From contig CAVQZZ010000001.1 in assembly GCA_963718825.1 (NCBI GenBank), positions 237,022-301,021 of the forward strand: 64,000 nucleotides of DNA. The letters run 5' to 3'. Both the position numbers and the translations under genes were made by a program. Under the pieces are notes generated by a model, which saw only the letters and a list, made by a program, of their open reading frames with translations, was not told where the DNA came from and searched no databases. Shown here piece after piece: positions 37,828 to 64,000 of this stretch (positions within the stretch are counted from its first letter, which is position 1; each line of letters opens with the position of its first letter). Source of the DNA: an uncultured Acidobacteriota bacterium (lineage in GTDB: Bacteria > Acidobacteriota > Vicinamibacteria > Vicinamibacterales > CAVVIG01).

Positions 37828-37847
37828 ATCGTTTACACTTAAAGCAC
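37828..37847. promoter_or_regulatory. Palindromic operator site B
   Basis: ATCG-TTTA-CACT-TAAA-GCAC in the 75-bp divergent gap; overlaps a -10-like TACACT. Confidence 0.6.
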
Positions 37848-37870
37848 TTTTCGGGAACCGCGGAGCGACC

Positions 37871-38362
37871 ATGGAACACGAGTTCGCACATCTTGTGGCC
37901 GAGTTCGAGCGCGGAAAGATAACGCGCCGTCAGCTGATTCGCCGCCTCGCGCTCACGGCGGCCGCCGCGACCGCCGCGGGTACGGCCGCAGCTTCAGCGG
38001 CCGAAAGTCCGCTCAAGGCGATTGCGGTCAATCACATCTCTTATCAGGTCGCCGACTATGGGAAGACGCGCGACTTTTACGCGAACCTTCTCGGCATGAA
38101 GCCGTCTGACGACGATGGCCGCACGGTACGGCTGACGTTCGGTTCTGACGAAACCTGTCTCGTGCCACGCACCGCCCGCGCCGGCTCTCCGACACCACGC
38201 ATCGATCACATCGCGTACACCCTCGAACACTGGGACAAGGACGCCGTCAAAGCCGAGCTCGAACGGCGAGGACTCGCGGCACGGCTCGACAACAACAGCT
38301 TCCACGTCGCCGATCCGGACGGATTCGACATCCAGATCGGCGCCCGCTCGGACAAAGCGTGA
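37871..38362 (+). CDS. VOC/glyoxalase family protein with Tat-like signal
   Basis: ITRRQL followed by an Ala-rich helix; VNHISYQVADY...FYANLLG, IDHIAY, DPDGFDIQ; SD GGAG. Confidence 0.85.
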   Translation: MEHEFAHLVAEFERGKITRRQLIRRLALTAAAATAAGTAAASAAESPLKAIAVNHISYQVADYGKTRDFYANLLGMKPSDDDGRTVRLTFGSDETCLVPRTARAGSPTPRIDHIAYTLEHWDKDAVKAELERRGLAARLDNNSFHVADPDGFDIQIGARSDKA

Positions 38363-40836: not shown

Positions 40837-40843
40837 AGCAGAC

Positions 40844-42274: not shown

Positions 42275-42283
42275 GTCGCGATC

Positions 42284-43993: not shown

Positions 43994-44061
43994 TTAACCG
44001 CGGAGGTCGCAGAAACCGCGGAGTCCAGACTTACTCGGTTGTCCGCGAGCTCCGCGGTTAA
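43994..44061. repeat. Inverted repeat between convergent genes (9-bp periodic; possible bidirectional terminator or REP-like element)
   Basis: TTAACCGCGGAG ... CTCCGCGGTTAA are perfect 12-bp arms; inner units CCGCGGAGG TCGCAGAAA CCGCGGAGT. Confidence 0.7.
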
Positions 44062-45579
44062 GCCGTCGGCGAATCCACGCGCTCAGGGAAAAATATCCGC
44101 ATCGTCGGCACGGACATTTCGATTCGCTTCGACCAGAGCACGATGACCGGAACGATTGCCGCGACCAGGCCCGGAACGACCGGGTGAATGTCGAGCATCC
44201 AGGGTGCGTGCTGCCGCGCCCAGGCTGTGGCGGCGAGGTGAGGAATCGTCCAGATCATTCCGGCGACCGAACCGGCCACCGATGACCACGTGGCCGCCCG
44301 CTTCGATAGATAGGGCGAGTTGAGCCCGAAGAGCATCGGGAAGAAAAACGCCACCCCCACCAGCGCGACGGCGTAGGACACGATATTCAGGATGAGATCG
44401 GGCGTCCGCAATGCCGCGAGAAATGACAGCGTGCCGACGATCACCACCGCCACGCGCGATATACCGAGATAGTACCGCTCCGTCTTCGACCACGCCGCGC
44501 GGCTCGAAATAACACTTGCGCAGGAAGTCGTGCGCGACGGCCGCGCCGCTCATGAGGAGCAGCGAGTCCGACGTCGCGATCGCGGCGCTGACGACGCCGG
44601 TGATCGCCAGCGCGCCGAGCCACGGCGTGCCCGCGAGGTTCGAGACATACGTGACGAGCGCGGGAAAGGCCTGGTCCGGTGCTTTGGCGATCTGGTTCCA
44701 CACCAGCACGCGCGCGGCCGCTCCAAGATAGAGGTTGCCGTAGAGCAGAAAGATCATGAAGAGGGCGTCGGTGATCGGAAGGGAAATGCGGGCGACCCGC
44801 GTGTCCTTCGCGGCGAACACCTTCGTGATCATCGTGACCCGCGTGGCATAGCCGACGACCCAGACCAGCCACCACGACACGAGATAGGTCCACGACCAGG
44901 TCGTGCCGCGCACGCTCGTCCACCCGGGCGCGACGCGATCCGCAGCGATCAGCACGTGGGTCAGCCCGCCGGCCGCGGCCGTGACCGCCGGCATCAGCGC
45001 GATGAGGCCGGTCCACATCAGCACGAACAACAGGATGTCGGTCCACACGACCGCGAGCAGTCCGCCGAGCGTGACGAACAGAATGAAGATGCCTGTCCCG
45101 AGCGCCATGCCGGCGACGAAGGGAATCCCGAGCAATCGCTCGAGCAGGAAGCCCATGACGCGGATCTGCGCGATCATGTACAGGACGCTCGAGATGAAGA
45201 TGATGAGCGCGCTGTAGCCGCGCAGGAAATTGCTCTCGAAGCGCGCGCCCATGTAATCGGGCAGCGTGAACCCGGACATCATCCGCAGCTTCTTCGCGAA
45301 GAAGCGAACGATGATCAGCGACGCGATCGCGAAGCTGATGTACGGCAGGATCGCCACGCCGCCGAAACGCGCGGCGAGTGCGACGCCGCCCTGCACCGAG
45401 CCGCCGTGCAGCACCGACGCCATTTCGGCGACGACCATCAGCCCGATGCCGAACCGGCGCCCCGCAACCCAGAAGTCCTCGGACGTCCGCTGAAATCGAG
45501 CGGCGATGAGTCCGATCGCCACGAGCAGCGCCATGTAAATGGCGAAGACGATCAGCCCGATGCTGCCGAGACCGGTCAC
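44058..45579 (-). CDS. Sodium:solute symporter (SSS, PutP/PanF-like; one frameshift near 44490)
   Basis: EDFWVAGR, TLPDYMGARF, TLGGLLAVVWTD, PDQAFP, SAAIATSDSLL, about 13 TM helices. Confidence 0.9.
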
Positions 45580-45586
45580 AAGGCTC

Positions 45587-45703
45587 TCAGTCGCGCCGCC
45601 GTGTGTACACCTGCCAGCAGTAATAAAACTGGTACAGGACGATCAGGGCCGGGATGACGAGGAGCACGACGAAGCTGGAGAGTGGAAGCCCGAGGATGCG
45701 CAT
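45587..45703 (-). CDS. Small single-TM protein (38 aa) preceding the SSS transporter; not in the ORF track
   Basis: MRILGLPLSSFVVLLVIPALIVLYQFYYCWQVYTRRRD*; stop is 7 nt before the SSS GTG; codons mostly end in G/C. Confidence 0.7.
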   Translation of the reverse strand: MRILGLPLSSFVVLLVIPALIVLYQFYYCWQVYTRRRD

Positions 45704-45735
45704 GTGTGCGGACTAGGTCCGGCGATCTGGCGGCC

Positions 45736-45768
45736 ACTATAGGCCAACTTACTTTAGGTGTAAAGGAC
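45736..45768 (-). promoter_or_regulatory. Sigma-70-type promoter of the small protein/SSS unit, overlapped by operator site C
   Basis: Minus strand TTTACA (45764-45759), 17 bp, TATAGT (45741-45736). Palindrome TTAC-TTTA-GGTG-TAAA-GGAC (45749-45768) covers the -35. Confidence 0.7.
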
Positions 45769-45771
45769 ACG

Positions 45772-45831
45772 TTGACTGCCCCCTGCAACTGTGACAGACT
45801 CCGCGCCGCAAATAGTTGAAGCCTAAACAAT
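45772..45831 (+). promoter_or_regulatory. Promoter of the TonB receptor 2 operon with operator site D
   Basis: TTGACT (45772-45777), 17 bp, extended TGa-CAGACT (45795-45800); ATAG-TTGA-AGCC-TAAA-CAAT (45812-45831) just after the predicted start. Confidence 0.65.
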
Positions 45832-45886
45832 ATAGCGCACGGTTCGCACCACCGGTCATCGGTTAACAGGCTCGTCGGGAGAAGTC

Positions 45887-48745
45887 ATGGTACAGCAGCG
45901 CTGCGCGTTCACACGGCATCTCGGCTCAGTCCTTCGCGCGATCGTCATGGTCCTCGGACTCGGCGCGATCGCAGCACCGGTCGCCGCACAGGTCAGCACG
46001 TTCGATCTCAGCGGCGTGATCAAAGACGCGCAGGGCGGCGTGCTGCCCGGCGTCACGGTCACGATGCGCAACGAGAGCACCGGCCTCACGCGCACCGTGG
46101 TGACCGATACGAACGGCGTGTACTACTTTGCCAACCTCCCGCCACAGGGGACCTGGGAGCTCTCGACCGAGCTCGCGGGGTTCGCGGCCCAGAAAAAGAG
46201 CAAGCTCGAGTTCTATGCGGACAGCAAGCCAATCTTGAATATCACGCTCGCGGTGGCGGCCGTGCAGGAATCCGTCACCGTCGTCACGGAGGCGCCGCTC
46301 GTCGACACGGCGCAGGCCACGCTGGGAATGTCGATCAACAAGGAGTTGATTGCCGAACTCCCGTTGAACGGACGTGATTACCTCGACCTGGCGCTCCTCG
46401 GCTCGGGCGTGAGCGACGTGGGCGCGGACAACGTGGCCGGCAGCAAGAGCCAGACAATCAACGGCGCCTATTCACGGTACACGCAGTACACGATGGACGG
46501 TTTCAGCAACACGCGCGATCAGCACGGTGTGGCGAAAGCCAACGTGCCGATGGAAGCGATGAGCGAATTCAAGGTCCAGACGAACCAGTTTTCCGCCGAG
46601 TACGGCGACACGGTTGGCGGGATCGTGACGGTAGTGACCAAGAGCGGCACGAATACGCTTACCGGGCAGGGCGCGCTGTACGTCCGCCCCGGTAGTTGGG
46701 ATTCGCCGGATCCGCTCACCAACACCAAAGCGCCCTTCAGCCGACAGGATTATTCCGGCGCCGTCGGCGGCCCGATTCTCAAGGACCGCACGCACTACTT
46801 TGTCGCGGCGGATTACCGCAATCAGGAGCAGCAGGGCGTCGTGACGGCGTCGATCGCAAGCGGAAAATTTCAGGGTGCGTTCCCGCTGCCTGAGCGGCGC
46901 GGGCGCGCGTTCGGCAAAGTCGACCATTCGGTGGGTGCGGCGAATCTGTTCACGTTCTCGTTTCTCATCGATCGCGATACGACCCACGCCGGCGTCGGCG
47001 GACTGAACCTCGTCGACAACGAATCGACGAGCATCGACGACAACACCAACTTCACGGGCACGTGGACGCGCGTGATCTCGGAAAGTCGCCTCAATGAATT
47101 CCGCATCGGGTACGCGAACGAATCCGTCCAGACGAGTACCGAGAAGCCGCAGTTCACGCCGACCGGCGTCGCGCTCATCTATCCAGGACAGGCAAACCTC
47201 GGATCGACCAACCGGCTGCAGACATCGCCGGACAAGAGTTTTCAAATCGCCGATACCTTCTCGTGGCACCTTTCGACGCACACGCTGAAGATCGGCAGCA
47301 TGGCGCGCAGCGCGACGCCCGGCGGCGTGCTGCTCACCACGATCGATGGCGCGTATACGTTCGCTGCCGCAGCGCCGTATCCCTACGATCCGAACAACAA
47401 GGCGAGCTTTCCCATTCAGTACGCGCAGGGCTTCTTCGGAAGCGGCTCCACAGAGGTGTCGCTGAACAAGTGGCACGTCGCCGCGTATCTCCAGGACGAC
47501 TGGAAGCTGAAGAGCAACTTCACGTTGAACCTCGGCGTGCGCTACCAGTACGAATCGCTCGTGGCGCAATACGCGAACGTCCGGCCGCGCGTGGGATTCG
47601 CATGGGATGTCACCAACGACGGCAAGACGGTGGTGCGCGGCGGTGCCGGCATCTTCACGGGCACCGTGTTCAGCACCGTCAACGCGTTCGAGGGATTCAA
47701 CGGCCCGAATGGGTTCGCCAACGTCACCTTCGCCCCGGGCGACCCGCTCTTTCCGACCTATCCGAACAATCTGCCTGGACCGCAGCTGCCCGCGGGCGTG
47801 AAACCGCCACCGGCGAACGATTACCTGGACGTACCGACCTACGCGCCGTCGCGGCGCAAGTCGCCCGAGTCCCAGAACTTCACGATCGGGATCGACAAGC
47901 AGATCGGCCAGTCGATGTCGGTCGGCCTCGACTTCACGTTCAATCGCGGCATCAACCTGCTCGAGCCGACGAACGTGAACTCGCCGTCGTACTTCAACTA
48001 CTCGACCGGCCTGACGCGGAGCGCCCAGGCGGGCGACGCGACGCGGCCGTTCGGCGCGATCGGCACGCCGATTCCCGCCGGGGTGGTGTCGTATCTGCCG
48101 AACGGCATGCCGTACGGGAACTACCGCGATCTTTACCTCATTGATTCGGTCGGTTTGTCGCACTACGTCGGAGTGGGACTGACCGTCAACAAGAGGCTGT
48201 CGAACAACCTCAGCTTCCAGGGGCAGTACACATGGAGCCGCGCGATGAACAACGGCGACGGCTTCCGACCAAATTTCCTGCCTCTGAATCCGAACGATCG
48301 CGAGGCCGAGTGGGGCTTGTCCGAGACGAACGTGCCGCACTCCTTCTCGTTGAACGGCGTGTATCGGCTGCCGTACGACGTGCAGGTCTCGGGCATCGCG
48401 CGTGCACATTCCGGTTCTCCGATCAATCCGGTGGCCGGTTCGGATCTCAACGGCGATCGCCTGCTGACCGACCGGCCGTTTGCGAACGGTGTGATCCTCG
48501 GACGCAATTCGTTCCAGGCCCCCGGGTTCTTCGAGGTCGATTTCGGCGTCGGCAAGGTGGTGCGGATCGGCAAGCAGCGGATCGAGGGGCGGATTGAAGC
48601 GTTCAACATCACCGACCGGCTGAATGCCGCGTCGGTCAACTCCACCTACGGTCCGAACGCGAACGCGCCGCTGCCGACATTTCTCGCGATCAACTCGTCG
48701 AATCCCGGGCGTCAGTATCAGCTGTCGGTCGTGTTCAAGTTCTGA
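45887..48745 (+). CDS. TonB-dependent receptor, Oar-like, paralog of 27556-30435
   Basis: Signal peptide; LPLNGRDYLDL, FSAEYG, VVTKSGTN, YLQDDW, RPRVGFAW; C-terminal FKF. Confidence 0.93.
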   Translation: MVQQRCAFTRHLGSVLRAIVMVLGLGAIAAPVAAQVSTFDLSGVIKDAQGGVLPGVTVTMRNESTGLTRTVVTDTNGVYYFANLPPQGTWELSTELAGFAAQKKSKLEFYADSKPILNITLAVAAVQESVTVVTEAPLVDTAQATLGMSINKELIAELPLNGRDYLDLALLGSGVSDVGADNVAGSKSQTINGAYSRYTQYTMDGFSNTRDQHGVAKANVPMEAMSEFKVQTNQFSAEYGDTVGGIVTVVTKSGTNTLTGQGALYVRPGSWDSPDPLTNTKAPFSRQDYSGAVGGPILKDRTHYFVAADYRNQEQQGVVTASIASGKFQGAFPLPERRGRAFGKVDHSVGAANLFTFSFLIDRDTTHAGVGGLNLVDNESTSIDDNTNFTGTWTRVISESRLNEFRIGYANESVQTSTEKPQFTPTGVALIYPGQANLGSTNRLQTSPDKSFQIADTFSWHLSTHTLKIGSMARSATPGGVLLTTIDGAYTFAAAAPYPYDPNNKASFPIQYAQGFFGSGSTEVSLNKWHVAAYLQDDWKLKSNFTLNLGVRYQYESLVAQYANVRPRVGFAWDVTNDGKTVVRGGAGIFTGTVFSTVNAFEGFNGPNGFANVTFAPGDPLFPTYPNNLPGPQLPAGVKPPPANDYLDVPTYAPSRRKSPESQNFTIGIDKQIGQSMSVGLDFTFNRGINLLEPTNVNSPSYFNYSTGLTRSAQAGDATRPFGAIGTPIPAGVVSYLPNGMPYGNYRDLYLIDSVGLSHYVGVGLTVNKRLSNNLSFQGQYTWSRAMNNGDGFRPNFLPLNPNDREAEWGLSETNVPHSFSLNGVYRLPYDVQVSGIARAHSGSPINPVAGSDLNGDRLLTDRPFANGVILGRNSFQAPGFFEVDFGVGKVVRIGKQRIEGRIEAFNITDRLNAASVNSTYGPNANAPLPTFLAINSSNPGRQYQLSVVFKF

Positions 48746-48752
48746 GGATCTG

Positions 48753-50108
48753 GTGCGTGTCAGTCGGCGTCGCTTCGTAACCGGCACGGCGACCGCAGCC
48801 GCGGCGCTGGCGACGCGCCGCCTGCTGGCCGCGCCTCCGCGCCTGACGGTCGCCGCGGCGGGCGACTGCATCATCACTCGCCGCGTCCGTCAGATCGATG
48901 ATCCCGACTTCCTCGCGCTCGCGCGCATCTTCCAGCAGTCCGACGCCGGTTTCGCGAACTGCGAGATGACGTTCCACAACTACGCCGGCTTTCCGTCGCC
49001 GACCGGCGCCTGCGGCGATCTGAACCTGATTGCTGATCCCCGAATCGCCGGCGATCTCGCATGGGCCGGCATCAACCTGATGACCGTCGCCAACAACCAT
49101 GGTGGAGACTACGGCACGGGCGGTCTGCTCGCGACGATTAATCAGTTGCACGAGGTCGGCATTACATCCGCCGGCGGGGGCACGAACCTCGCGCAGGCGC
49201 GCGCGCCTGGATTTCGCTCGACGGCCCACGGGCGGGTCGCGCTCGTGGGCTGCGCGTCGACGATGCGCGCGGGCACCGAAGCGAGCCCTTCTCACGCGGA
49301 AATCCCCGGGCGCCCCGGCGTCAATCCGCTGCGGGTAAAAACGGTGTACGGCGTGCCGAGAGAACGCTTGGCGGCGCTGCGTGACACGCAGGCCGAATTG
49401 AGCGGCGGAAGCGGACGCGGCGGTGGAGCGCCGGCCGGCGACTTGCAATTTTTCGGCACGACGTTCCGTGAGGCGTCGAAACCGGTGGTCACCGTCGAGG
49501 CCGAGCCGTCGGACATCGCGGCGATCACGTCCGAGGTCTCGCGCGCGCGCGCCGAAGCCGACATCGTCATCGTGACCATTCACTCGCACGAAAACGGACG
49601 CACGCGCGCCGAGCCGGCCGCGTTTCTCCCGACGTTTGCCCGCGCATGCGTCGACGCGGGCGCGCACGCCTTTTTCGGCCACGGACCGCATGTCCTGCGC
49701 GGGATCGAGATGTACAAGGGGCGGCCGATCTTCTACAGTCTGGGCAATTTTTATTTTCAGGCGGAAACGATCCAGCAGATCCCCGAAGAGATCTACCGCA
49801 ATTGCCAGATCAACAGCACGGCCCCGTCCGACTTCTTCAAGAAAGTCATGGGCCGGATGTTCGAAGACGATGTGTTCTGGGAAGCGATCGCTCCGCAACT
49901 CGTGTTCGACGACGGTCGCCTCGTCGAGGCAACGCTGTATCCGGTAGACCTCAGGCGCAGCGATCCGCCCACGAGGCGGGGAACGCCGATGCTGGCCCGC
50001 GGCGCGGTGGCCGATCGCATCCTGAAGAGGCAAGCGGAGTTGTCACAGCCGTTCAACACGACGGTGACAGTCGACAACGGCGTCGGCACGATCCGTGTCA
50101 ACGGATGA
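48753..50108 (+). CDS. CapA (PGA_cap) family metallophosphoesterase-fold protein with Tat signal
   Basis: GTG after SD GAGG; SRRRFV; AGDC, NCE, ANNH..DYG, IHSHE, GHGPH, YSLGNF. Confidence 0.88.
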   Translation: MRVSRRRFVTGTATAAAALATRRLLAAPPRLTVAAAGDCIITRRVRQIDDPDFLALARIFQQSDAGFANCEMTFHNYAGFPSPTGACGDLNLIADPRIAGDLAWAGINLMTVANNHGGDYGTGGLLATINQLHEVGITSAGGGTNLAQARAPGFRSTAHGRVALVGCASTMRAGTEASPSHAEIPGRPGVNPLRVKTVYGVPRERLAALRDTQAELSGGSGRGGGAPAGDLQFFGTTFREASKPVVTVEAEPSDIAAITSEVSRARAEADIVIVTIHSHENGRTRAEPAAFLPTFARACVDAGAHAFFGHGPHVLRGIEMYKGRPIFYSLGNFYFQAETIQQIPEEIYRNCQINSTAPSDFFKKVMGRMFEDDVFWEAIAPQLVFDDGRLVEATLYPVDLRRSDPPTRRGTPMLARGAVADRILKRQAELSQPFNTTVTVDNGVGTIRVNG

Positions 50109-50115
50109 ACGGATC

Positions 50116-52536: not shown

Positions 52537-52541
52537 CGAAC

Positions 52542-53954: not shown

Positions 53955-53963
53955 CAGGCCGAT

Positions 53964-55679: not shown

Positions 55680-55689
55680 TACATTTCCA

Positions 55690-56815
55690 ATGACGTTCAA
55701 GTTCTCGTACAAGCTGGCGTTGTGTCTCGGCGCGATCGCGCTCGCGCCGCTCGCCGGTTCCTCGATGCTTTCGGGAGGGACGACGGCCCCCCCGCCAGTG
55801 CAGGATCGAAAGGGCGGCGAGGACATCTCCGGTCCGTACAGAAGCGGTCGCCAACTGGCCGCAACCGCTCGGCCACCCGGGCTACACCTGGGGATCGATG
55901 GGCGGCGTGTTTGCCGAGACACCGGACCGCGTGTTCCTGCTGCAGCGCGGCGAGCTGCCGGTGCCCCCAAAGCCCTTCGAGGGTTATCCGATGGCGTCGC
56001 CCGCGACGAGCGGTCAGCCGAGGCTGCAGAACTGTATTCTGATCGTGAACCGCGAAGGCAAGGTTGTCGACACGTGGACGCAGCACGACCATCTGTTCCA
56101 GGGCGGGCGCGGTCCGCACAAAGTGAAGATCAGCCCGTATGATCCGGAGAAGCACGTCTGGATCATCGACGACTTGCGCGAGCAGGTGTTCGAGTTCACA
56201 CACGACGGCAAGCGGCTCGTGATGACGCTCGGCGAGGCCGGGGTCGCCGGAGACGATCCGAAGCATTTCGCCGGGCCAACCGATATCGCGTGGCTGCCCG
56301 ACGGGACCTTTTTCATCACCGACGGCTACGTCAACACGCGCATCGTCAAGTTCGACGCGACCGGCAAGTTCCTGAAAACGTGGGGCGGCAAAGGCGCCGG
56401 CCGAGGCCAGTTCAACCTGCCGCATTCGATCGACATCGACCGCAACCGCCGGCTCTACGTGGCGGACCGCCAGAATGGGCGCGTGCAGATTTTCGACGAG
56501 CAGGGCACGTTCCTCGATGAGTGGGATAACATCGTGCAGCCGTTTCACCTGATCGTCTCGCCGGATCAGCATGTCTGGGTCTCCGACGGTGTCACGAACA
56601 AGTTCCTGCAGTTCACCACCGCGGGTCGTCTCGTGTCGTCGTGGGGCACGTACGGTTCGATGCCGGGCGCGTTTTTCGGCGTGCATCAGTTCTCGGTCGA
56701 TTCGGAGGGGAATGTGTACGTGGCCGAGGCTTTCGGCGGTCGCGCGCAGAAGTTCGCGCCGCGCAAAGGGGTCGATCCGTCGCTGCTGATGCCCCCGATG
56801 AAGAACATCATGTGA
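55690..56815 (+). CDS. Secreted NHL-repeat beta-propeller (peptidyl-alpha-hydroxyglycine alpha-amidating lyase-like; +1 frameshift near 55840)
   Basis: Signal peptide; ISGPY(E)AVANWPQ; GPHKV, FAGPTDIAW, DGYVNTRIVKF, FNLPHSI, VADRQNGRVQIFD. Confidence 0.85.
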
Positions 56816-56834
56816 GACGCGTGACTAAATCCCA

Positions 56835-57899
56835 ATGAGCGCGCCTGCCACCACAGCCGGCCACGAGCCGGCCACCGACACGACGTCATATCTCGATCCG
56901 CGGATCGATCGCACGTCGATCGCGCCGGAGAGCCCGGTCCCGGCCGAGGATCTCGCCCGCTGGTACCGGGCCATGCGCCTCGCACGCACGTTCGAGGACA
57001 AGCTGGCGGCGCTGTATCGGCAGGGAAAGATCGTCGGGGCCGTGTACCTCGGCACCGGTCAGGAGGCGATTGCCACCGGGGTCGTCAGCCTGCTGCAGAA
57101 GGGTGACTATTTCTCGACGGTGGCGCGCGGGCTGGCCGGCTGGTTTTTACGGGGCGTCGAGCCGCGCGATGTGATGGCGCGCTGGTTCGGCAAAGACATT
57201 CCGCCCTCGCACGGGCGAGAGCTCGGGCTCTTCCTCGCGGACACGGCGGCGTACGGCATCGCGCCGTACCACAACGGCTCGATGGCGTCGTGGATTCCGT
57301 CGGGTGCAGGATTCGCGCTCGCGTTCAAGTACCGGAAGGAGCCGCGGGTCTACGTCGCGCTCACCGGCGACGGCGCGACGAGTCCGGGCGACTTTTACGA
57401 GGGTGTCAATTTCGCGGCCATCCACAAGCTGCCGCTCGTCATCGTGGTCGAGAACAATTGCTACGCGTATTCGACGCCGCAGTCGCTGCAGATGCCGGTG
57501 GCGAACGTCGCGGACCGCGCGCCGGCGTTCAACATCCCGGCGTCGATTGGGTTCGGCAACGACATTTTCGAGGTGCGGCGGCTGGTCGGCGCGGCGATCG
57601 ATCACGCCCGCAGCGGCAAAGGGCCGTATCTGGTGGAGTTCAAGACGTTCCGTCGCCGCGGCCATGGCGAGCACGACGACATGGGCTACGTGCCCAGCGC
57701 GCTCCGCGAATTCTGGGAGCGCCGCGATCCGATCGACATGCTGCGCAGCTATCTGCGCGACGGCGCCGGCTGGACATCGGACGCGATCGACAAGATCGAT
57801 GCCGAGTGCGCCGCCGCGATCGAGCGGGCCGTCGAGGAGGCGCACGCGCTTCCCGATCCGAAACCTGAAACGGTGTCCTGGAGGCTTTTTGCCGACTGA
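56835..57899 (+). CDS. 2-oxoacid dehydrogenase E1 alpha subunit (ThDP-binding)
   Basis: LYRQGKI, GQEA, GDGATS...ENN ThDP motif, R..GHGEHDD..Y, DPI. Confidence 0.93.
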   Translation: MSAPATTAGHEPATDTTSYLDPRIDRTSIAPESPVPAEDLARWYRAMRLARTFEDKLAALYRQGKIVGAVYLGTGQEAIATGVVSLLQKGDYFSTVARGLAGWFLRGVEPRDVMARWFGKDIPPSHGRELGLFLADTAAYGIAPYHNGSMASWIPSGAGFALAFKYRKEPRVYVALTGDGATSPGDFYEGVNFAAIHKLPLVIVVENNCYAYSTPQSLQMPVANVADRAPAFNIPASIGFGNDIFEVRRLVGAAIDHARSGKGPYLVEFKTFRRRGHGEHDDMGYVPSALREFWERRDPIDMLRSYLRDGAGWTSDAIDKIDAECAAAIERAVEEAHALPDPKPETVSWRLFAD

Positions 57900-57944
57900 G
57901 TGCATCGCACGCCGTGACGGCGTGTCCGCGTGGCGGATGTCTGC

Positions 57945-58916
57945 ATGATCGTCACGTATCTCGAGGCGATTTCCCAGGCGATGCGCGAGGAGATGCGGCG
58001 CGATCGCGACGTGATCCTGCTCGGCGAGGACATCGCCGAGTTCGGCGGGGCGTTCAAGATCACGCGCGGGTTTCTCCAGGAGTTCGGCGCCGAACGCGTC
58101 ATCGACACGCCGATTGCCGAGAGCGGCTTTGTGGGCGCCGCCTGCGGAGCCGCCATCGAAGGATTACGGCCGATCGTCGAGTTCCAGTTCGCCGATTTCA
58201 TCGCGTGCGCGTTCGATCAGATCGTCAACTACGCGGCGAAAGCGAACTACCGCTGGGGCACGCCGGTGCCCGTCGTCTTTCGCGGTCCGTCGGGCGGAGG
58301 ATTCCGCGGGGGGCCGTTTCACTCGCAGAATCCCGAAGCCTGGTTCACCCACGTGCCAGGTCTCAAAGTTGTCCAGCCGTCGACCCCTTACGACGCCAAA
58401 GGGCTGTTGAAAGCCGCTGTGCGCGACAACAACCCGGTGATCTACTTCGAGCACAAGCACCTGTATCGCCGCATTCGGGAAGAGATTCCTGAAGACGATT
58501 TCATCGTGCCGATCGGCGTCGCGGATGTGAAGCGCGCCGGGCGCGATCTGACGATCGTCACCTACGGCGCCATGGTGCACGAATCGCTGGCGGCGGCTGC
58601 GCGGCTGTCGAAAGAGGGCGCCGAGTGCGAGGTCATCGACCTTCGTACGCTGGTTCCGCTCGACAAGAAAACGTTCCTCGACAGCGTGCGGAAAACGTCC
58701 CGCGCGCTGGTCGTGTATGAAGCGCACCTGACGGGAGGCTTTGGCGGCGAGGTCGCCGCGATCATCGCGCAGGAGGCGTTCGATGCTCTCGATGCGCCGG
58801 TGACCCGCGTGGCGAGCCTCGACGTCCCGGTGCCATTCGCCGCCGCGCTCGAGGACGCGGTGCTGCCGAACGCCGACAAGATTTATCGGGCCGCGATCGA
58901 CGTGCTCGAGTATTGA
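57945..58916 (+). CDS. 2-oxoacid dehydrogenase E1 beta subunit
   Basis: TYLEAI, GEDI, DTPIAESG, EFQFADF, GPFHSQ, FEHKHLYR, IDLRTLVPLD. Confidence 0.95.
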   Translation: MIVTYLEAISQAMREEMRRDRDVILLGEDIAEFGGAFKITRGFLQEFGAERVIDTPIAESGFVGAACGAAIEGLRPIVEFQFADFIACAFDQIVNYAAKANYRWGTPVPVVFRGPSGGGFRGGPFHSQNPEAWFTHVPGLKVVQPSTPYDAKGLLKAAVRDNNPVIYFEHKHLYRRIREEIPEDDFIVPIGVADVKRAGRDLTIVTYGAMVHESLAAAARLSKEGAECEVIDLRTLVPLDKKTFLDSVRKTSRALVVYEAHLTGGFGGEVAAIIAQEAFDALDAPVTRVASLDVPVPFAAALEDAVLPNADKIYRAAIDVLEY

Positions 58917-58932
58917 GGATCGCTTTCGACGC

Positions 58933-60297
58933 ATGCTAATCGACGTCGTCATGCCCCAGATGGGAGAGTCGCTCGCGGAAGGCACGGTCGTCCGCTGGTT
59001 GAAGAAGGCCGGCGACCGCGTCGAGCTCGACGAGCCGTTGTTCGAGCTGTCGACCGACAAGGTGGACACTGACGTCCCTTCGTCGGCGGCGGGAGTCCTG
59101 ACGTCGATCTTCGTCGCCGAAGGCCAGACCGTCGCGGTCGGCTCGCGCGTCGCCGTGATCGACGATGGCGCAGCGGCAGCGGCGCGTCAGGAGCAACCGG
59201 CGAGTGAGCGGACACCGGCGGCCGCGGCAGAACAGCCTGCTCCCGAGCCGGGCGCCCACTTCAAGAACGCGCACGCTCCGCAGCTGGTGTCGTTTCGCAA
59301 CGAGGCGGCTCGGTCCATTCCGTCGCGAGGCGCGGACCCTCTCCGGAACAACGCCGCCGCCGACAACGCCACGTTCAGTCCCGCAGTGCTCGAGGCTGCT
59401 CGCCACGGCGGCGTCACGCTCGCGACGTTGACGACGATGGTGGGATCCGGCCGGGGCGGACGGGTGACGAAGGGCGACCTTGCGCGGTTTATCGCGTCGG
59501 GCGGGACTGCGGCGCGGACCGATCAGCAGCGCGCGCAAACCAACGCAGACAACGCCCAGTCGTCTTCCGTCCCCGCGGCATACATGTACCGTCCGAACGC
59601 GGACGATCAGGTCGTGCCGATGTCGGCGGCGCGCAGGAAGATCGCCGATCACATGTCGTGGTCCGTGCGGATCAGCCCGCACGCGACCGCGTTCGCCGAT
59701 TGCGACATGACGGCCGCGGTCGAGCATCTTCGGCGCAACCGCGATGCGTTTACGGAGCAGGTCGGCGCGCCGCTGACGTTCACGGCGATAGCTGCCGCGG
59801 CGCTTGCGCGTACGGTGCGTGCCTTTCCGGCCTTCAACGCTTCCGTCGTTGGCGATGCGATCGTCTTGAAACCGCGCGTCAACCTGGGCATTGCGGTCGC
59901 GCTGCCGGACACCGACGAGCTGATCGTCCCGGTCGTGCGGGACGCCGACGGCCTGTCGCTGGCGGGCATCGCGCTGGCGATCGCCGACGTGTCGTCGCGC
60001 GCGCGTGAACGAAAGCTGCGGCCGGAAGATGTACAGGGTGGCACCATCACGCTGACCAATCCGGGCATGTTCGGCGGCATCACCGGCACGCCCATTCTCA
60101 ACCAGCCACAGGTGGCGATCATCGGTCTCGGAGCGATCCAGAAACGCGCGGTCGTGCTCGATGGCGACCGGATCGCGGCACGGTCGATGATGACGATCGG
60201 CTTGACGTTCGACCACCGCGCCGCGGATGGCGTGGCGGCGTTCAAATTTCTCGCGGACCTGAAAGCCAGGCTCGAAGACGGACTCGACGATTTGTAG
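58933..60297 (+). CDS. 2-oxoacid dehydrogenase E2 dihydrolipoamide acyltransferase (single lipoyl domain)
   Basis: MPQMGES, STDKVD lipoyl Lys, GSGRGGRVTKGD, GGTITLTNPG, PILNQPQ, FDHRAADG. Confidence 0.95.
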   Translation: MLIDVVMPQMGESLAEGTVVRWLKKAGDRVELDEPLFELSTDKVDTDVPSSAAGVLTSIFVAEGQTVAVGSRVAVIDDGAAAAARQEQPASERTPAAAAEQPAPEPGAHFKNAHAPQLVSFRNEAARSIPSRGADPLRNNAAADNATFSPAVLEAARHGGVTLATLTTMVGSGRGGRVTKGDLARFIASGGTAARTDQQRAQTNADNAQSSSVPAAYMYRPNADDQVVPMSAARRKIADHMSWSVRISPHATAFADCDMTAAVEHLRRNRDAFTEQVGAPLTFTAIAAAALARTVRAFPAFNASVVGDAIVLKPRVNLGIAVALPDTDELIVPVVRDADGLSLAGIALAIADVSSRARERKLRPEDVQGGTITLTNPGMFGGITGTPILNQPQVAIIGLGAIQKRAVVLDGDRIAARSMMTIGLTFDHRAADGVAAFKFLADLKARLEDGLDDL

Positions 60298-60307
60298 GAG
60301 GAGCGTT

Positions 60308-61181
60308 ATGCGGAAAGGTGGACTCATCGTGGCGGCGCTGCTGGCGACAGCGGCCATTTCCCGCGCGCAGGCGCCTGCTGCGCCGGCGCGCGCGGCCGGC
60401 AGTTCGCTGTCGGCGGTAGCGGCCGACATCGTGTCCGGCAAGCTGGTCGTGTACGACCTGACGCAGTTGCTCAATGCGGCGACGCCGATCATTCAGCTGC
60501 CGCCGCCGTTCGCCAACACGCCAGGTTTCAAGTCTCACGAGATTCTCGAAATACAACGACAAGGGGCCGGCCTGGTCCTGGAACTGGATCGAAGTCGGCG
60601 AGCACGTCGGCACGCACTTCGATGCGCCGTGCCACTGGGTGACCGGCCGGGCCAAGGCCTGCGTCGATCAACTCGAGGCCAAACAGTTCATCGGCCCCGC
60701 GGCGGTGCTCGACGTGACGGCGGAGGTCGCGAAGAATGCTGACTTCGTCGCCACGAAAGATACCGTGCTCGCCTGGGAGAAAAAGCATGGCCGGCTGCCG
60801 AAGGGCTCCTGGGTGATCCTGCGGACCGGTTGGGGCGCCCGTGCGACCGACGCGGCCCGGTTCCTGAACGTCGGCAAGGACGGCGCGCCGCACTATCCAG
60901 GATTCGGGAAAGACTCGGCCGAGTTCCTGACGAAGGAGCGCGACATTCTCGGCGTCGGCGTGGAACAGGTCGGCACCGACGCGGCGGTCGGCGCCAAGTC
61001 GGATCCGCCGTTTCCGAACCACTCGATCATGCACGGCGCCGGCCGATTCGGCCTGACGCAGCTGGCGAACGTCGACAAGCTGCCAGAGAGCGGCGCGCTC
61101 GTGATCGCGACGCCTCTGAAGATCGAGCACGGGTCGGGCAGTCCGGTGCGTGTCATCGCCATCGCGCCGGCGACCCGCTGA
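60308..61181 (+). CDS. Cyclase family metal hydrolase (kynurenine formamidase / isatin hydrolase-like) with signal peptide (+1 frameshift near 60545)
   Basis: VYDLTQ, KYNDKGPAWSWN, GEHVGTHFDAPCHW (HxGTHxD), LRTGW, PG, PLKIEHGSGSPVR. Confidence 0.88.
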
Positions 61182-63424
61182 TGCGGTACGGCGCGCGCGC
61201 TGCCGCGCGAGCGGGCGCGGCCCTCGCCGTCGCAGCCGCGTGCATCACGCACGCCGGCGCCGACACGCGCGTGCCGCCGTCGGCCACGCAGGCTCCCGCC
61301 GCGGCACTTCTCGACAGCAAAGGGGTGGTCCGCGCCGCCGAGCAGCTGGCCAAGAGCGATCGCGTTCACGTCGTGACGATCGGCACCAGCGCGGGCGGAC
61401 GGCCAATCCCGATGATCATCGTCACCGCGCCCGGCGAATCGATCGAGGAGTGGCAGCGCCGGGCCCGCAGGATATCGGGGCCATCGGTTCGCTTCAACAC
61501 GCTCATCCAGCACGACGTTGATGGCGCGAGCGTCGACGAGCTGCTGTCGACCACGCGCCTGCCGCTGCTGTTCGCCGGCGCGTCGTGGGGCCACGAGGCG
61601 TCTCAGGTCGAAGGTCTGATTGCCGCCGCGAATCACTTTGCCACCGACAGGTCGCCGCAGACCGACGCGCTGCTGCACCGCGTGGTCCTGCTGATCGTGC
61701 CGCTGATGAATCCGGATGGCCGCGATCGCGCGATCGCCGAATGGATGCACACGCCGTTGAGCAACGGCGACGCCGCGGTCGCGAACCAGAACGGCTTCAT
61801 GCTGAACCGCGACTTCATCCACCAGACGCAGCCGGAGTCGCGAGCGATTCTGGCCGTCACCAGGGACTGGCGCCCGGTTGTCGGCATCGACCTGCACGAG
61901 GACGTGAACCGGCTGGGCGTTGCGATGCCGGACGTCGCCTTCGTGCCGCCCTACATGCGCGGATTCGACGTCGAAGAAGAACCGGCCATGCGGAAGGCGA
62001 TCGTGCGCGTGGGAGATGCGATTGCGGCGCGCTGGCGCGCGGCTGGGTACACGATTGTTCACGATCCCGACGGCGATCGCCGCTGGGTTCCGATGCCGCC
62101 TCGCGGGTCCGGCGAACTGAACCCGGTCGCCGGATCGAGCGGCCGCCTCGATTTCCTCTGGAACATCCATTCAATAGTCGGCTTGATCACCGAGAGTGCG
62201 CGGACGCCCGGCACCCAGCGCTGGGAAGACAGAGTCGCCCAGAAAAAACTGGCGGTCCTCGCCACTGCTGAAGCGGTCGCCGCCGATGCGAAGTTTTTCG
62301 CCTCGACGATCTACGGCAACAGAGCCGCCGCGGCGCCATCTGACGGGAACGATTTCGTCGCGATCGCGCACGCTCAGCAGCCAGGCGCCGATCGCGCGGA
62401 GCTGGTGCGGCTGCTGCGCGAACACGACGTGCTCGTGTACCGCGCTGCCAATCAACCCTACGACGTCGTGCCGCTCGCGCAACCCGAGGCGCCGTTCATA
62501 CGGCACGCGCTCCTGGCCGAGCGCTCCAAGCTCAACGATCTTCCCGCAGCGCTCGGCGTCCGCGTCCAGCGTTCGTCCGAGTTGCCGCGTTCCACGAAAG
62601 ACGCGCTGTCGACCGCCGCGCTGACCTTGTACGACCGCGCGCCGCAGACATGGCCGAGGCGTCCCGAAGCGGCGAGCACCGATCGTCGGCCACGCGTCGC
62701 GGTGTATTCAGGTCAGGGCATCGACCCCGCAGCCGCCGGCGAACTGACCTTCGTGCTGAAGATGGCCGGGTTATCGGCGATCGAGCTATCCGCCGATGAT
62801 GTGCGACGAGGTTCTTTTCGAAACGCGACCGTCGTGATTGTCGGCGACGGCGCCGCGAAAGAAATCGTCGACGGCTGGGATCTGACCGTGGCGACTCGCC
62901 GCGCGCCGTGGCAGCCTGCCGAAGCGAGCCGCGGCATCGGCAGGGAGGGCGAGAACGCGTTGGCCGCGTACGTGCGCGCCGGCGGGCGGCTCATCACGAT
63001 CGGCCGGAGCGCGGGTATCGCGATTCCGTCGCTCGTGGCGGGCACATTGCTGGCGGTGCGGCCCGGGATCGGCGAGGTCCGTCTCGAGATGACAGCGGTC
63101 GGCCGGCCGCTCTTCGCCGGTGTGCCGCGCGACGGCGACATCGCCCACGCATTCTTGTCGGCGCCTCCAGGAGGCACCGATGGGGGCTACCTGCTCACCG
63201 CGTCAACTCCGGGCCATGTTCTCGCGTGGTATGCGGGAGCCGACGATCGCCCCGACGAACAGTCGTTTGCCGACGTGACGCCGCTGGCGCGATCCTCGAA
63301 TCACGCCGCCATCATCGCCGCCGACGTCGGCGCAGGCCGATTGGTCGCGTTTGGTTTTTCACCCGTGTTCCGCGCTCAGTGGCGCGCGACGTTTCCGCTC
63401 CTCTTCAACGCGATCGCGCAATGA
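61181..63424 (+). CDS. M14-like zinc carboxypeptidase-fold protein with C-terminal glutamine-amidotransferase-like domain
   Basis: IGTSAGGRPI, SWGHE (in place of IHGNE), PLMNPDG, LNRDF, QPE, DLHE; TGATG overlap with the cyclase gene. Confidence 0.78.
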   Translation: MRYGARAAARAGAALAVAAACITHAGADTRVPPSATQAPAAALLDSKGVVRAAEQLAKSDRVHVVTIGTSAGGRPIPMIIVTAPGESIEEWQRRARRISGPSVRFNTLIQHDVDGASVDELLSTTRLPLLFAGASWGHEASQVEGLIAAANHFATDRSPQTDALLHRVVLLIVPLMNPDGRDRAIAEWMHTPLSNGDAAVANQNGFMLNRDFIHQTQPESRAILAVTRDWRPVVGIDLHEDVNRLGVAMPDVAFVPPYMRGFDVEEEPAMRKAIVRVGDAIAARWRAAGYTIVHDPDGDRRWVPMPPRGSGELNPVAGSSGRLDFLWNIHSIVGLITESARTPGTQRWEDRVAQKKLAVLATAEAVAADAKFFASTIYGNRAAAAPSDGNDFVAIAHAQQPGADRAELVRLLREHDVLVYRAANQPYDVVPLAQPEAPFIRHALLAERSKLNDLPAALGVRVQRSSELPRSTKDALSTAALTLYDRAPQTWPRRPEAASTDRRPRVAVYSGQGIDPAAAGELTFVLKMAGLSAIELSADDVRRGSFRNATVVIVGDGAAKEIVDGWDLTVATRRAPWQPAEASRGIGREGENALAAYVRAGGRLITIGRSAGIAIPSLVAGTLLAVRPGIGEVRLEMTAVGRPLFAGVPRDGDIAHAFLSAPPGGTDGGYLLTASTPGHVLAWYAGADDRPDEQSFADVTPLARSSNHAAIIAADVGAGRLVAFGFSPVFRAQWRATFPLLFNAIAQ

Positions 63425-64000
63425 CGAGCGATGCGCGAAAACAGGTCGCGTGGGTCACGGGCGGGAGCCACGGCATCGGACGCGCCGTCGCAGCCGCGCT
63501 GGTTTCGGCGGGAATGGACGTCGTCATCTCGGCGCGCTCGGCCGAGGATATCGCGCGCGCGGCCAGCGATATCGCTGCTGGCGGCCACCAGATTCTTGGC
63601 CTGCGCTGTGATGTATCGGACGAGCGGCAGGTCACGGACGCGTTCCAGGCGGCGGTCGACCGGTTTCAGCGGATCGACGTCCTGATCAACAATGCCGGGT
63701 TTGCCGAGAGCTCGCCGTTCGTCCGCATTGATACGGCGGTGTGGGACAAGACCATCGCCGTGAATCTGACGGGCACCTTTCACTGCATCCGGGCCGTGCT
63801 GCCCGGGATGATCGAACGGCGACACGGCCGCATCATCAACGTCGCATCGTCGGCGGCTCGGATGGGTTTCGCGTATACAGCGGCCTACTGCGCCGCGAAA
63901 CATGGCGTCCTCGGACTCACGCGTTCGCTGGCGGTCGAAGTCGCCGGCAAAGGGATCACGGCTAACGCCGTTTGCCCTGGGTGGGTCGACACGCGCATGA
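63421..64000 (+). CDS. Short-chain dehydrogenase/reductase, runs off the window end (not in the ORF track)
   Basis: ATG 63421 (ATGA overlap): MTSDARKQVAWVTGGSHGIG...NNAG...NVAS...YCAAKHG...NAVCPGWVDT. Confidence 0.92.
   Translation, partial: MTSDARKQVAWVTGGSHGIGRAVAAALVSAGMDVVISARSAEDIARAASDIAAGGHQILGLRCDVSDERQVTDAFQAAVDRFQRIDVLINNAGFAESSPFVRIDTAVWDKTIAVNLTGTFHCIRAVLPGMIERRHGRIINVASSAARMGFAYTAAYCAAKHGVLGLTRSLAVEVAGKGITANAVCPGWVDTRM

Follow-up and report, generated by a model that had tools for sequence, protein, structure and literature searches.

The 64,000-nt stretch of DNA analysed here (the window: positions 237,022 to 301,021 of contig CAVQZZ010000001.1, assembly GCA_963718825.1) comes from a soil member of the Acidobacteriota. 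From position 44083 to beyond its end, the window carries a dense row of genes, where an exported homologue of isatin hydrolase lies together with a sodium:solute symporter (SSS), the E1 alpha, E1 beta and E2 components of a 2-oxoacid dehydrogenase (E1a, E1b and E2) and a block of enzymes resembling those of known 2-aminobenzoyl-CoA clusters. The reading that we favour, with a confidence somewhat better than even, is that a conserved core of this row opens isatin outside the cell, imports isatinate, and makes and degrades 2-aminobenzoyl-CoA, and that accessory genes have been added to it. Judged by sequence, two parts of this core are of known kinds, the downstream block (2-aminobenzoyl-CoA type) and the hydrolase (isatin hydrolase family), and its novelty would lie in their combination with E1ab/E2 and the symporter. 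In the literature searched, we have found no description of this union, of the export of the hydrolase, or of a step from isatinate to an aroyl-CoA.

Isatin and isatinate recur in the bacterial degradation of indole and of the auxin indole-3-acetic acid, and the parts that deal with these routes in a 2018 review (PMC6221969) and in a 2025 preprint on the iad pathway of Variovorax (PMC12633357) name no enzyme from isatinate onwards. The E1ab/E2 complex offers a testable candidate for this step, which may produce 2-aminobenzoyl-CoA without ATP while gaining NADH. If this is true, the complex would be the long-missing enzyme leading from isatinate to the anthranilate pool, and the first among 2-oxoacid dehydrogenase complexes to have an arylglyoxylate as its dedicated substrate. 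Abundant and mostly uncultured soil Acidobacteriota would then possess a pathway for indole-derived compounds with a predicted extracytoplasmic first step. The locus and its relatives span two acidobacterial classes, and in some Proteobacteria a different enzyme, IorAB, holds the same position.

From the observed family assignments, gene order, co-occurrence and co-localisation, we infer every substrate of the following scheme. Outside the cytoplasm, the exported hydrolase would open isatin, giving the 2-oxo acid isatinate (2-aminophenylglyoxylate), which the divergent SSS symporter would import. E1ab/E2, with an E3 encoded elsewhere, would oxidatively decarboxylate isatinate to 2-aminobenzoyl-CoA, to be dearomatised by a split anthraniloyl-CoA monooxygenase/reductase (a FAD monooxygenase and a flavin reductase of the OYE family). 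The ring product would then be deaminated and degraded by RidA, SDR, enoyl-CoA hydratase (ECH) and acyl-CoA dehydrogenase (ACAD), with MarR as the likely regulator. In effect, this would be the known 2-aminobenzoyl-CoA pathway, where a hydrolase, a transporter and a 2-oxoacid dehydrogenase stand in for the in-cluster aryl-CoA ligase. A first-pass annotation of the window had proposed periplasmic hydrolysis of a substrate, its import by the symporter and its conversion to an acyl-CoA, an order of events that fits the hydrolase, the symporter and E1ab/E2 of the core, but does not extend to all the twelve genes to which it had been applied.

The hydrolase, the downstream block and the dehydrogenase complex

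The gene at 60308-61181 (+ strand), read across a 1-nt frameshift at about 60541, had been called a cyclase at first pass, and by its sequence it is an exported homologue of isatin hydrolase. Searches with phmmer against the solved isatin hydrolases (PDB 5nmp, 5nnb, 5nna and 4j0n) gave E values of 1.1e-65 to 2.7e-62, as against 1.3e-4 or weaker for the kynurenine formamidases in the PDB, and the identity to characterised isatin hydrolases is about 55% over 204 residues. In the account of the family given in PMC6117287, His69, His73 and Asp75 are Mn ligands, His79, Asp193 and His207 are catalytic residues, listed along with Gln219, and Trp59, Trp61, Trp80 and Tyr204 belong to the pocket. Ten of eleven such residues (W59, W61, H69, H73, D75, H79, W80, D193, H207 and Q219 in LaIHA numbering) are conserved in the window enzyme, Y204 being replaced by F; the enzyme also keeps the Trp pocket and the HxGTHxDxPxH motif that binds Mn. 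A reading as kynurenine formamidase was rejected, with 38 bits to the NCBIfam arylformamidase model against a cut-off of 223 and the PDB formamidases at E 1e-4.

A signal or lipoprotein peptide was found in 9 of the 10 orthologues read. The window hydrolase and its orthologues in E1a-positive genomes carry such an export peptide, unlike a 61%-identical homologue without a signal peptide in a genome (G095) that lacks an E1a orthologue. The isatin hydrolases of Labrenzia (Roseibium) aggregata and Ralstonia, from which the four solved structures come, belong to the same family as the window enzyme, but the Roseibium gene sits in a cluster resembling the iad type of auxin degradation. Its neighbours there include a ligase, a thiolase and a Rieske oxygenase, and no 2-oxoacid dehydrogenase is beside it. 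The row on this Roseibium aggregatum plasmid (L143) reads MarR, VanB-type reductase, Rieske alpha and beta, AMP-binding protein, thiolase, SDR, cyclase and SDR, an order that matches iadC-J of Variovorax auxin degradation as presented in the corresponding part of PMC12633357.

The block that follows, all on the + strand, begins with the SDR gene (63421-64203; Pfam adh_short, E 9e-64), which runs over the window end, and continues with genes for RidA/L-PSP (64200-64625), ECH (64625 to about 65429; NCBIfam PRK08258, 334.7 bits against a cut-off of 330), ACAD (about 65450-66604), MarR (66601-67131), the OYE-family flavin reductase (67211-68680) and the FAD monooxygenase (68699-69826; matching the N-half of NCBIfam PRK08255 with 472 bits). 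The monooxygenase is 47-53% identical, over its full length, to the N-half of PF01494+PF00724 fusions of 700-790 residues, which are labelled anthraniloyl-CoA monooxygenase (JGI) or salicylyl-CoA 5-hydroxylase/oxidoreductase (NCBI). A cluster on a Ralstonia megaplasmid is annotated with a fused hydroxylase/reductase, a 3-hydroxyacyl-CoA dehydrogenase, MarR, ECH, ACAD, a 2-aminobenzoate-CoA ligase, a 4-hydroxybenzoyl-CoA thioesterase and L-PSP. Seven proteins of the window locus match this cluster at 36-50% identity: the monooxygenase (48%) and the OYE reductase (36%) match the fused protein, and SDR, ECH, ACAD, MarR and RidA, all present, are 38-50% identical to their counterparts, with 46% between SDR and the 3-hydroxyacyl-CoA dehydrogenase of this 2-aminobenzoate cluster.

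In the aerobic 2-aminobenzoyl-CoA pathway, as outlined in PMC4539516, a ligase is followed by a monooxygenase/reductase and by enzymes resembling those of beta-oxidation, and the enamine product of the monooxygenase/reductase is described in PMC3534580 as undergoing hydrolytic deamination; the presence of RidA therefore fits an amino substrate. These likenesses make it probable, in our judgement with a good margin of safety, that the downstream block belongs to the known 2-aminobenzoyl-CoA type of cluster. The abm pathway of Azoarcus evansii and the Ralstonia cluster have in common with the present locus the monooxygenase and OYE reductase acting (here by prediction) on an aroyl-CoA, SDR, ECH, ACAD, MarR and RidA/L-PSP. 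They differ from it in having the monooxygenase and the reductase as one fused protein, whereas here there are two genes, first OYE and then the monooxygenase. They also differ in the entry to the pathway, where the 2-aminobenzoate-CoA ligase and the 4HBT thioesterase are absent here and E1a/E1b/E2, the exported isatin hydrolase and the SSS symporter stand instead. No AMP-binding (CoA ligase) gene occurs between 44083 and 73578, and the thioesterase counterpart is also missing from the cluster. A pattern of displacement is seen in G095, where a monooxygenase-OYE-ACAD-ECH row is accompanied by a divergent AMP-binding CoA ligase.

The three genes of the dehydrogenase complex precede the hydrolase on the same strand: E1a at 56835-57899 (Pfam E1_dh, E 3e-62), E1b at 57930/57945-58916 (Pfam Transket_pyr and Transketolase_C) and E2 at 58933-60297, with lipoyl, E3-binding and catalytic domains. 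The thiamine diphosphate (ThDP) motif GDG...NN of E1a, the lipoyl-lysine motif TDKV of E2 and its catalytic DHRAADG motif are all intact, so that the complex looks competent from its sequence. In this domain set and in the catalytic motifs, it is like PDH, BCKDH and acetoin dehydrogenase. Unlike them, it falls below the equivalog cut-offs for E1a and E2, has a patchy distribution and lacks an E3 in the cluster: against the NCBIfam equivalog models of pyruvate, 2-oxoglutarate and acetoin dehydrogenases, E1a scores too low (233 bits for a cut-off of 411, in the case of PDH, and 225 for one of 394), E2 stays under every equivalog cut-off (313 against 449), and E1b passes just the subfamily model PRK09212 (389 against 321). 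The genome encodes four other E1a/E1b pairs, to whose E1a the cluster E1a is just 28-38% identical. For E1b, the closest paralogue (on contig C2) shows 62% identity; E1a is thus the divergent subunit, and the one proposed to be specific for isatinate.

The first-pass annotation had pointed to the genes past the window end as the place to look for an E3, CoA-processing enzymes and a regulator. The CoA-processing enzymes and MarR are there, but no dedicated E3 was found in the cluster or just past the window, the TIGR01350 (E3) matches of the genome being limited to C1:626211-627618 and C2:2679534-2680949, both beside other E2/E1 genes. The last component of the proposed core, the SSS symporter (44083-45579; Pfam SSF, E 9e-32), is encoded on the - strand and, as had been noticed at first pass, is divergent from the row, from which it is separated by a spacer of 307 nt.

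Distribution of the core and its relatives

The locus was compared over a sample of 151 genomes of the order and another of 118 genomes of its family (f1), and for 20 E1a orthologues of the order sample the E1/E2 genes were inspected together with about 7-10 kb on each flank. The genes that recur are those of the SSS symporter, E1a/E1b/E2, the exported hydrolase, SDR, RidA, ECH, ACAD, MarR and the split monooxygenase/reductase. E1a orthologues (63-82% identity) occur in 20 of the 151 order genomes, with one further degraded copy, and in 5 of the 118 family genomes, which indicates that the complex is not a housekeeping one. All the 13 genomes of the order sample with a monooxygenase orthologue (at least 64% identity) also have an E1a orthologue, a degraded copy in the case of G027, and all the 11 with an orthologue of the exported hydrolase (at least 66%) are E1a-positive, although these genomes are related and the counts, not being independent, overstate the independence of the association. 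The hydrolase gene directly follows that of E2 in eight genomes (G000, the genome under study, and G001, G120, G086, G032, L069, L074 and L127). Ten of the 20 E1a loci have SDR-ECH-ACAD, four have the symporter beside E1a, and six, when extensions are included, have OYE and/or the monooxygenase.

Gene order in related genomes separates this core from the other genes of the row. In G001, of the same genus, it reads triplet | symporter | receptor-NHL-E1a-E1b-E2-hydrolase-SDR-RidA-ECH-ACAD-MarR-OYE-monooxygenase, the triplet being a DUF1592-DUF1552-ankyrin module; five of the twelve genes of the window row are missing from it, namely those of the MslH-like protein, the in-cluster DUF1592, DUF1552 and ankyrin proteins, and the M14-like protein. 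In G120, of another genus of the same family, it reads receptor-MslH-like-(monooxygenase, opposite strand)-DUF1592-DUF1552-ankyrin-NHL-(BNR protein)-E1a...OYE, with no M14-like gene, and in G086 symporter | E1a-E1b-E2-hydrolase-(BNR protein)-receptor-DUF1592-DUF1552-ankyrin-SDR-ECH-ACAD-OYE-monooxygenase. At four loci from four other families (L026, L027, L029 and L038), the symporter, with orthologues of 56-81% identity, is directly divergent from E1a, and there is no receptor, triplet, NHL, MslH-like or M14-like gene. Outside family f1 as a whole, no orthologue of the receptor, the MslH-like, the NHL or the M14-like protein was found at the loci of E1a orthologues, and the triplet was found at only two. 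In family f12, a symporter orthologue lies within 2.5 kb of the hydrolase gene at six of six hydrolase loci; a second locus of this family, apart from E1ab/E2 and with no CoA ligase, carries the symporter and a hydrolase-(amidohydrolase)-OYE-monooxygenase-thioesterase-DoxX-SDR row. We regard it as very likely that the window row is a mosaic, made of a conserved catabolic core and of lineage-specific additions.

A scan of species genomes gave 80 E1a loci, which were sorted by record titles and match patterns into three groups: 26 like those of Vicinamibacterales, 37 of a Blastocatellia type (some of them under other titles) and 17 without a pathway neighbour. OYE and/or monooxygenase orthologues adjoin E1a-E1b in 31 of the 37 Blastocatellia-type loci; an exported protein of the cyclase family is nearby in 18 of these and a transporter of the MFS in 15, as in the order MFS-cyclase-monooxygenase-OYE-E1a of one of them (L113, 4785-12484).

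The sole E1a orthologue outside Acidobacteriota among the 80 loci (62% identity) is that of a cultured strain, Castellaniella caeni NBRC 101664 (L105), where E1a-E1b-E2 is flanked by Liv-type ABC transporter genes and by two proteins without a Pfam match. This E1a may have been acquired horizontally, and since the locus has neither hydrolase nor monooxygenase, it is uninformative on the substrate.

Five proteobacterial plasmid loci with a homologue of isatin hydrolase were also inspected, and IorAB adjoins the hydrolase in two of them. On a plasmid of Burkholderia sp. SFA1 (L146), the row is IorA-IorB-thioesterase-hydroxylase/oxidoreductase...MarR|hydrolase, and it continues with two gentisate-type dioxygenases, a nitrilase and a maleate isomerase; on a plasmid of Novosphingobium humi (L148), hydrolase, IorA and IorB are contiguous, IorAB starting 19 nt after the hydrolase gene. 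Both clusters are like the present one in placing a hydrolase homologue beside a CoA-acylating 2-oxoacid oxidoreductase, and that of Burkholderia also in having an aroyl-CoA hydroxylase/oxidoreductase and MarR. The oxidoreductase is, however, the ferredoxin-dependent IorAB (indolepyruvate type) and not E1/E2, and the downstream route of Burkholderia differs in its thioesterase and gentisate-type dioxygenases, functions that are given by annotation. By analogy, IorAB could be a non-orthologous counterpart of E1ab/E2 in some Proteobacteria. The other three plasmid loci show the iad-like auxin cluster of Roseibium, a hydrolase-acyl-CoA-ligase-SDR row in Azospirillum and nothing recognised in B. 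cenocepacia.

The substrate of the complex and competing explanations

Whether E1ab/E2 is a CoA-acylating isatinate dehydrogenase is, in our estimation, close to evenly balanced. Several observations weigh against it and, in part, against the whole scheme. The choice of isatinate as the E1 substrate, which we would neither bet on nor against, is read from the gene neighbours only. Nine of the 20 E1a loci of the order sample show E1ab/E2 without other core genes in the fetched stretch, and some lie near class I/II aminotransferases, M16/M20 peptidases or a beta-eliminating lyase, neighbours that would suit a 2-oxo acid derived from an amino acid. The 17 loci without a pathway neighbour, many of them titled Marinacidobacterales, and the Castellaniella locus have E1a orthologues of 62-67% identity. 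In the Blastocatellia-type loci, E2 is not adjacent, and the cyclase-family protein could not be taken as an isatin hydrolase, its best PDB match being the uncharacterised 5ibz, with isatin hydrolase B at just E 1e-6. Three cluster genes are frameshifted in the assembly under study (at about 55840, 60541 and 65310-65317), and the relatedness of the co-occurring genomes, mentioned above, counts on the same side. In the literature searched, we found no link between isatinate and a 2-oxoacid dehydrogenase or IorAB, and no aromatic 2-oxo acid substrate reported for the class of dehydrogenases with heterotetrameric E1.

The best-placed alternative, to which we nevertheless give a low probability, is that E1ab/E2 is an ordinary dehydrogenase for pyruvate, branched-chain or other amino-acid-derived 2-oxo acids that merely adjoins an anthranilate-degradation cluster. 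An unlinked ligase would then make 2-aminobenzoyl-CoA, using anthranilate that is supplied by the kynurenine pathway or formed from isatinate by some other enzyme. A candidate ligase does exist in the genome. The best homologue of the Ralstonia 2-aminobenzoate-CoA ligase is a benzoate-CoA-ligase-family gene on contig C2 (54% identical to this annotated enzyme; 370 bits against a family cut-off of 375), convergent with a tryptophan 2,3-dioxygenase-like gene (L142, that is G000:C2:966000-985999, at 7998-10478), so that 2-aminobenzoyl-CoA could form without E1/E2 from tryptophan-derived anthranilate. An ordinary complex is also in line with what E1a resembles most in the PDB (a Thermus 2-oxo acid dehydrogenase and human PDH, about 140 bits), and with the E1a loci that have aminotransferase or peptidase neighbours, or no pathway neighbour. 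In addition, SDR, ECH and ACAD could serve the breakdown of isoleucine and valine, or the route from 2-oxoadipate through glutaryl-CoA to crotonyl-CoA.

An ordinary role is, however, difficult to reconcile with the patchy occurrence of the complex, with the four other E1a/E1b pairs of the genome and with the NCBIfam equivalog cut-offs that it misses. Neither would it account for the presence of E1a in every genome with the monooxygenase or the exported hydrolase, including the degraded copy of G027, or for the adjacency of E1a-E1b to OYE or the monooxygenase in most loci of the second class. Moreover, SDR, RidA, ECH, ACAD and MarR all have their counterparts in a ligase-type 2-aminobenzoate cluster.

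The first-pass annotation had gone further, and understood the twelve or more genes as one complete pathway in which a substrate enters through the receptor, is processed in the periplasm, is imported by the symporter and ends as an acyl-CoA. On this view, the substrate would be a large one, and its periplasmic processing would fall to the MslH-like, DUF1592, DUF1552, ankyrin and NHL proteins, the hydrolase and the M14-like protein. We consider this unlikely, more so than an ordinary dehydrogenase, even if a number of observations favour it: the genes lie on the same strand, overlapping or at most 45 nt apart, no terminator-like site falls between them, and a contig about 90% identical to the window (X3) is colinear from 55402, where the ankyrin gene is about to end, to 64000 in SDR, with the M14-like gene included. 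Of the 118 family genomes, four have a receptor orthologue (at least 64% identity); these are the four with the hydrolase-type cluster, and in each of them the receptor gene lies within it. The triplet adjoins six of the eight clusters with the hydrolase after E2, in at least three families, while its chance of falling in any one 20-kb stretch would be roughly 3% (a rough estimate from about 8 loci in 5.7 Mb). On the other hand, the gene set is not kept together for seven of the twelve genes, as seen in G001, where five of the seven accessory genes are missing and the core is intact, and in the loci outside family f1, where the symporter stands beside E1a or the hydrolase with no receptor or triplet. 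The M14-like gene was found only in the genome under study and on the near-identical contig, and no HxxE zinc motif is present in its product. Abundant generic modules of these genomes include the triplet and the NHL and BNR/sortilin proteins. Isatin itself is a small molecule, and it should not need a TonB-dependent receptor.

The accessory genes may nonetheless supply a precursor of isatin. The joint proposition that E1ab/E2 is an isatinate dehydrogenase and that the receptor and the triplet, with the MslH-like, NHL and M14-like proteins as variable helpers, take up a larger compound, indolic or with tryptophan in it, and convert it oxidatively into isatin is a slender one in our view. If it were true, it would provide a first function for the PSCyt3-DUF1552 pairs of Planctomycetota, Verrucomicrobiota and Acidobacteriota.

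The least probable alternative, of which we would expect very little, is another substituent on the ring, that is, a 2-hydroxy or otherwise substituted arylglyoxylate degraded via salicylyl-CoA, or a lactam other than isatin: the NCBI name of PRK08255, bifunctional salicylyl-CoA 5-hydroxylase/oxidoreductase, would allow a hydroxyl instead of an amino group (a further point against our scheme), the Blastocatellia-type clusters have a different cyclase-family hydrolase and a homologous enzyme of the Variovorax auxin pathway is described as a broad amidase in the section of PMC12633357 devoted to it, but the window hydrolase keeps its identity to characterised isatin hydrolases and their pocket residues, RidA is conserved between SDR and ECH, which points to an amino substituent, and the homologous Ralstonia cluster has an annotated 2-aminobenzoate-CoA ligase.

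Accessory genes and structure of the gene row

The receptor, the MslH-like protein, the triplet, the NHL protein and the M14-like protein are lineage-specific periplasmic or outer-membrane additions; the core occurs without them. The row opens with the TonB-dependent receptor (45887-48745, + strand as all the following; Pfam OMP_b-brl_4, 299.7 bits), which has a CarboxypepD_reg N-domain and a Plug domain scoring 19.4, under the cut-off of 23.9, and which is placed in three arrangements among the clusters. It is followed by a CapA/MslH-like metalloenzyme (48753-50108; Pfam PGA_cap, E 1.5e-49), found in G000 and G120 only. This protein is a full-length homologue (E 6e-81) of PDB 8gq9, which we take to be the lasso-peptide C-terminal Trp epimerase MslH, in agreement with the name of the NCBIfam model. 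A function as the epimerase itself was discarded, given its 320 bits to NCBIfam epimerase_MslH against a cut-off of 700, its Tat signal and the lack of lasso-peptide genes nearby.

The triplet consists of a DUF1592/PSCyt3-type dihaem cytochrome c protein (50116-52536; Pfam PSD3, PSD5, PSD4, PSCyt3, PSD2 and PSCyt1), with two CxxCH motifs at residues 44 and 676, a DUF1552 protein (52542-53954; Pfam HXXSHH, E 3.7e-83) and an ankyrin-repeat protein (53964-55679; Pfam Ank, E 7e-67). Immediately upstream of the symporter, at 38359-43969, there is a second DUF1592-DUF1552-ankyrin triplet, which shares 65-72% identity with the one in the cluster and has a DUF1592 paralogue at 38359-40836 (67%) and an ankyrin paralogue at 42284-43969 (65%). 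The triplet is in fact present in multiple copies, as a module of which contigs C1 and C2 together carry about 8 loci that are 44-80% identical to each other, the ankyrin protein being the least conserved, and its position around the E1 clusters varies from upstream to downstream or between the hydrolase and SDR. The pair of a PSCyt3-type cytochrome and a DUF1552 protein is presented as conserved and of unknown function where PMC5615132 mentions it. The pairs of Planctomycetota and Verrucomicrobiota have the same domain architecture and pairing as here, and differ from the present case, where an exported ankyrin protein is added to form the triplet, which is found at about 8 loci and recurs beside the isatin-type cluster.

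An AlphaFold2 model of the DUF1552 protein, built from 72 sequences, reached a pLDDT of 88.8 and resembles the alkaline-phosphatase/sulfatase superfamily (Z 16.6, rmsd 3.9 A over 274 residues; Foldseek E 2e-4, TM 0.31-0.40). Residues H121, D149, Q150, D234, D251, H341 and H345 are invariant in the 72 sequences. A formylglycine (S1) sulfatase was considered and rejected, for the fold matches but the C/S-x-P-x-R motif is absent. On the strength of the model, DUF1552 can be described as a metal hydrolase-like protein paired with a cytochrome, and no more can be said. The link of the triplet to a defined catabolic neighbourhood, together with the predicted fold of DUF1552, offers a first point of access to this very large pair of uncharacterised families.

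Next in the row is an NHL-repeat beta-propeller (55690-56815; Pfam NHL), read across a 1-nt frameshift at about 55840, with 115 bits to NCBIfam ScyF against a cut-off of 350. An NHL gene is also beside the cluster at the E1a locus of G120, and most family-f1 genomes searched have 8 to 49 NHL matches, three of them having 2-6. Around the best NHL matches outside the genus, 11 loci showed no cluster gene nearby except for one weak E2-like match. The M14-like protein (61181-63424) gives a partial Pfam Peptidase_M14 match (46.6 bits, above the gathering score, over profile positions 11-137 of 286). It was rejected as an M14 zinc carboxypeptidase, there being no HxxE in its 747 residues, and it has no sequence match in the PDB; its gene was found only in the genome under study and on the X3 contig, and is absent from G001, G120 and G086.

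Gene models were derived from the listing of open reading frames (ORFs) and from Pfam and NCBIfam scans, with inspection of start codons and N-termini. They bear out the first-pass description of the row as twelve + strand genes from 45887 past the window end that overlap or lie at most 45 nt apart (gaps, in order, of 7, 7, 5, 9, 10, 19, 30-45, 16 and 10 nt, and then overlaps of 1 and 4 nt), and likewise its family assignments, apart from the refinement of the cyclase to an isatin hydrolase homologue. The largest gap of the continued row is the one of 79 nt before OYE. Eight of the twelve N-termini look like export signals, the same number as proposed before and again judged by eye: those of the receptor, the MslH-like, DUF1592, DUF1552, ankyrin and NHL proteins, the cyclase and the M14-like protein, with Tat-type signals in the MslH-like (SRRRF) and DUF1552 proteins.

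Two of the twelve genes need a correction of frame. The NHL protein has its signal peptide in frame with 55690 and its body in frame with 55898, and in the cyclase-family gene the two parts are in the frames of 60308 and 60474, so that the short gaps before these two genes hold only if a 1-nt frameshift is bridged in each. At exactly these two sites, contigs from other metagenome runs are one base shorter, at 55840 (X1 and X3) and at 60541 (X3), the cyclase gene is intact in G001, and both lipoamide dehydrogenase (E3) genes of the genome are also broken, into 2 and 5 frame pieces; the frameshifts in the row are therefore probably assembly errors. The assembly (67.7% complete, 5 contigs) is rich in indels and looks like a long-read product, and as single-base frameshifts are frequent in it, gene calls need a frame-aware reading. 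Three gene models were discarded on this basis or on closer inspection: an ECH-ACAD fusion (a 752-residue ORF), which comparison with the G120 gene shows to result from the frameshift at about 65310-65317; the ORF 60308-60742 as a complete cyclase gene, which has no Pfam match alone and is the N-terminal part of the frameshifted gene; and a 421-nt non-coding gap after SDR, which is filled by the RidA gene.

Signals of transcription units were sought with consensus scans. The promoter scan gave 1 promoter-like site against 2.1 expected, and the terminator scan 16 terminator-like sites against 14.0 expected, a chance level that makes it weak evidence either way; no terminator-like site fell in any + strand intergenic gap, in a scan that was at chance level overall. 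Among RNA sequencing runs, none was listed as containing window 55000-64000. A shared MarR operator was looked for in the spacer between symporter and receptor (45580-45886) and in that between MarR and OYE (67125-67215), which have no common word of 8 nt or more and no palindrome with arms of 6 or more.

The locus is flanked by a second TonB-dependent receptor of the CarboxypepD_reg type and two BNR/sortilin-repeat proteins (window 27325-30435 and 34826-37891, and L001:14490-16892, L001 coordinates being window coordinates minus 60000). Orthologues of these flanking genes (BNR 52-80%, receptor 60-71% identity) are also near the E1 cluster in G120, G086, L069 and L074, which indicates that the conserved neighbourhood is larger than the finding reported here. 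After the monooxygenase gene, an ORF of 1251 residues (L001:9823-13578, window 69823-73578) joins a truncated amino-acid permease (profile positions 2-303 of 470) and two class V aminotransferase parts, of which one matches the VC1184-type class V aminotransferase with 540 bits, above the cut-off, and the second is class V aminotransferase-like; the counterparts of its three parts are in different frames in G120 and G001.

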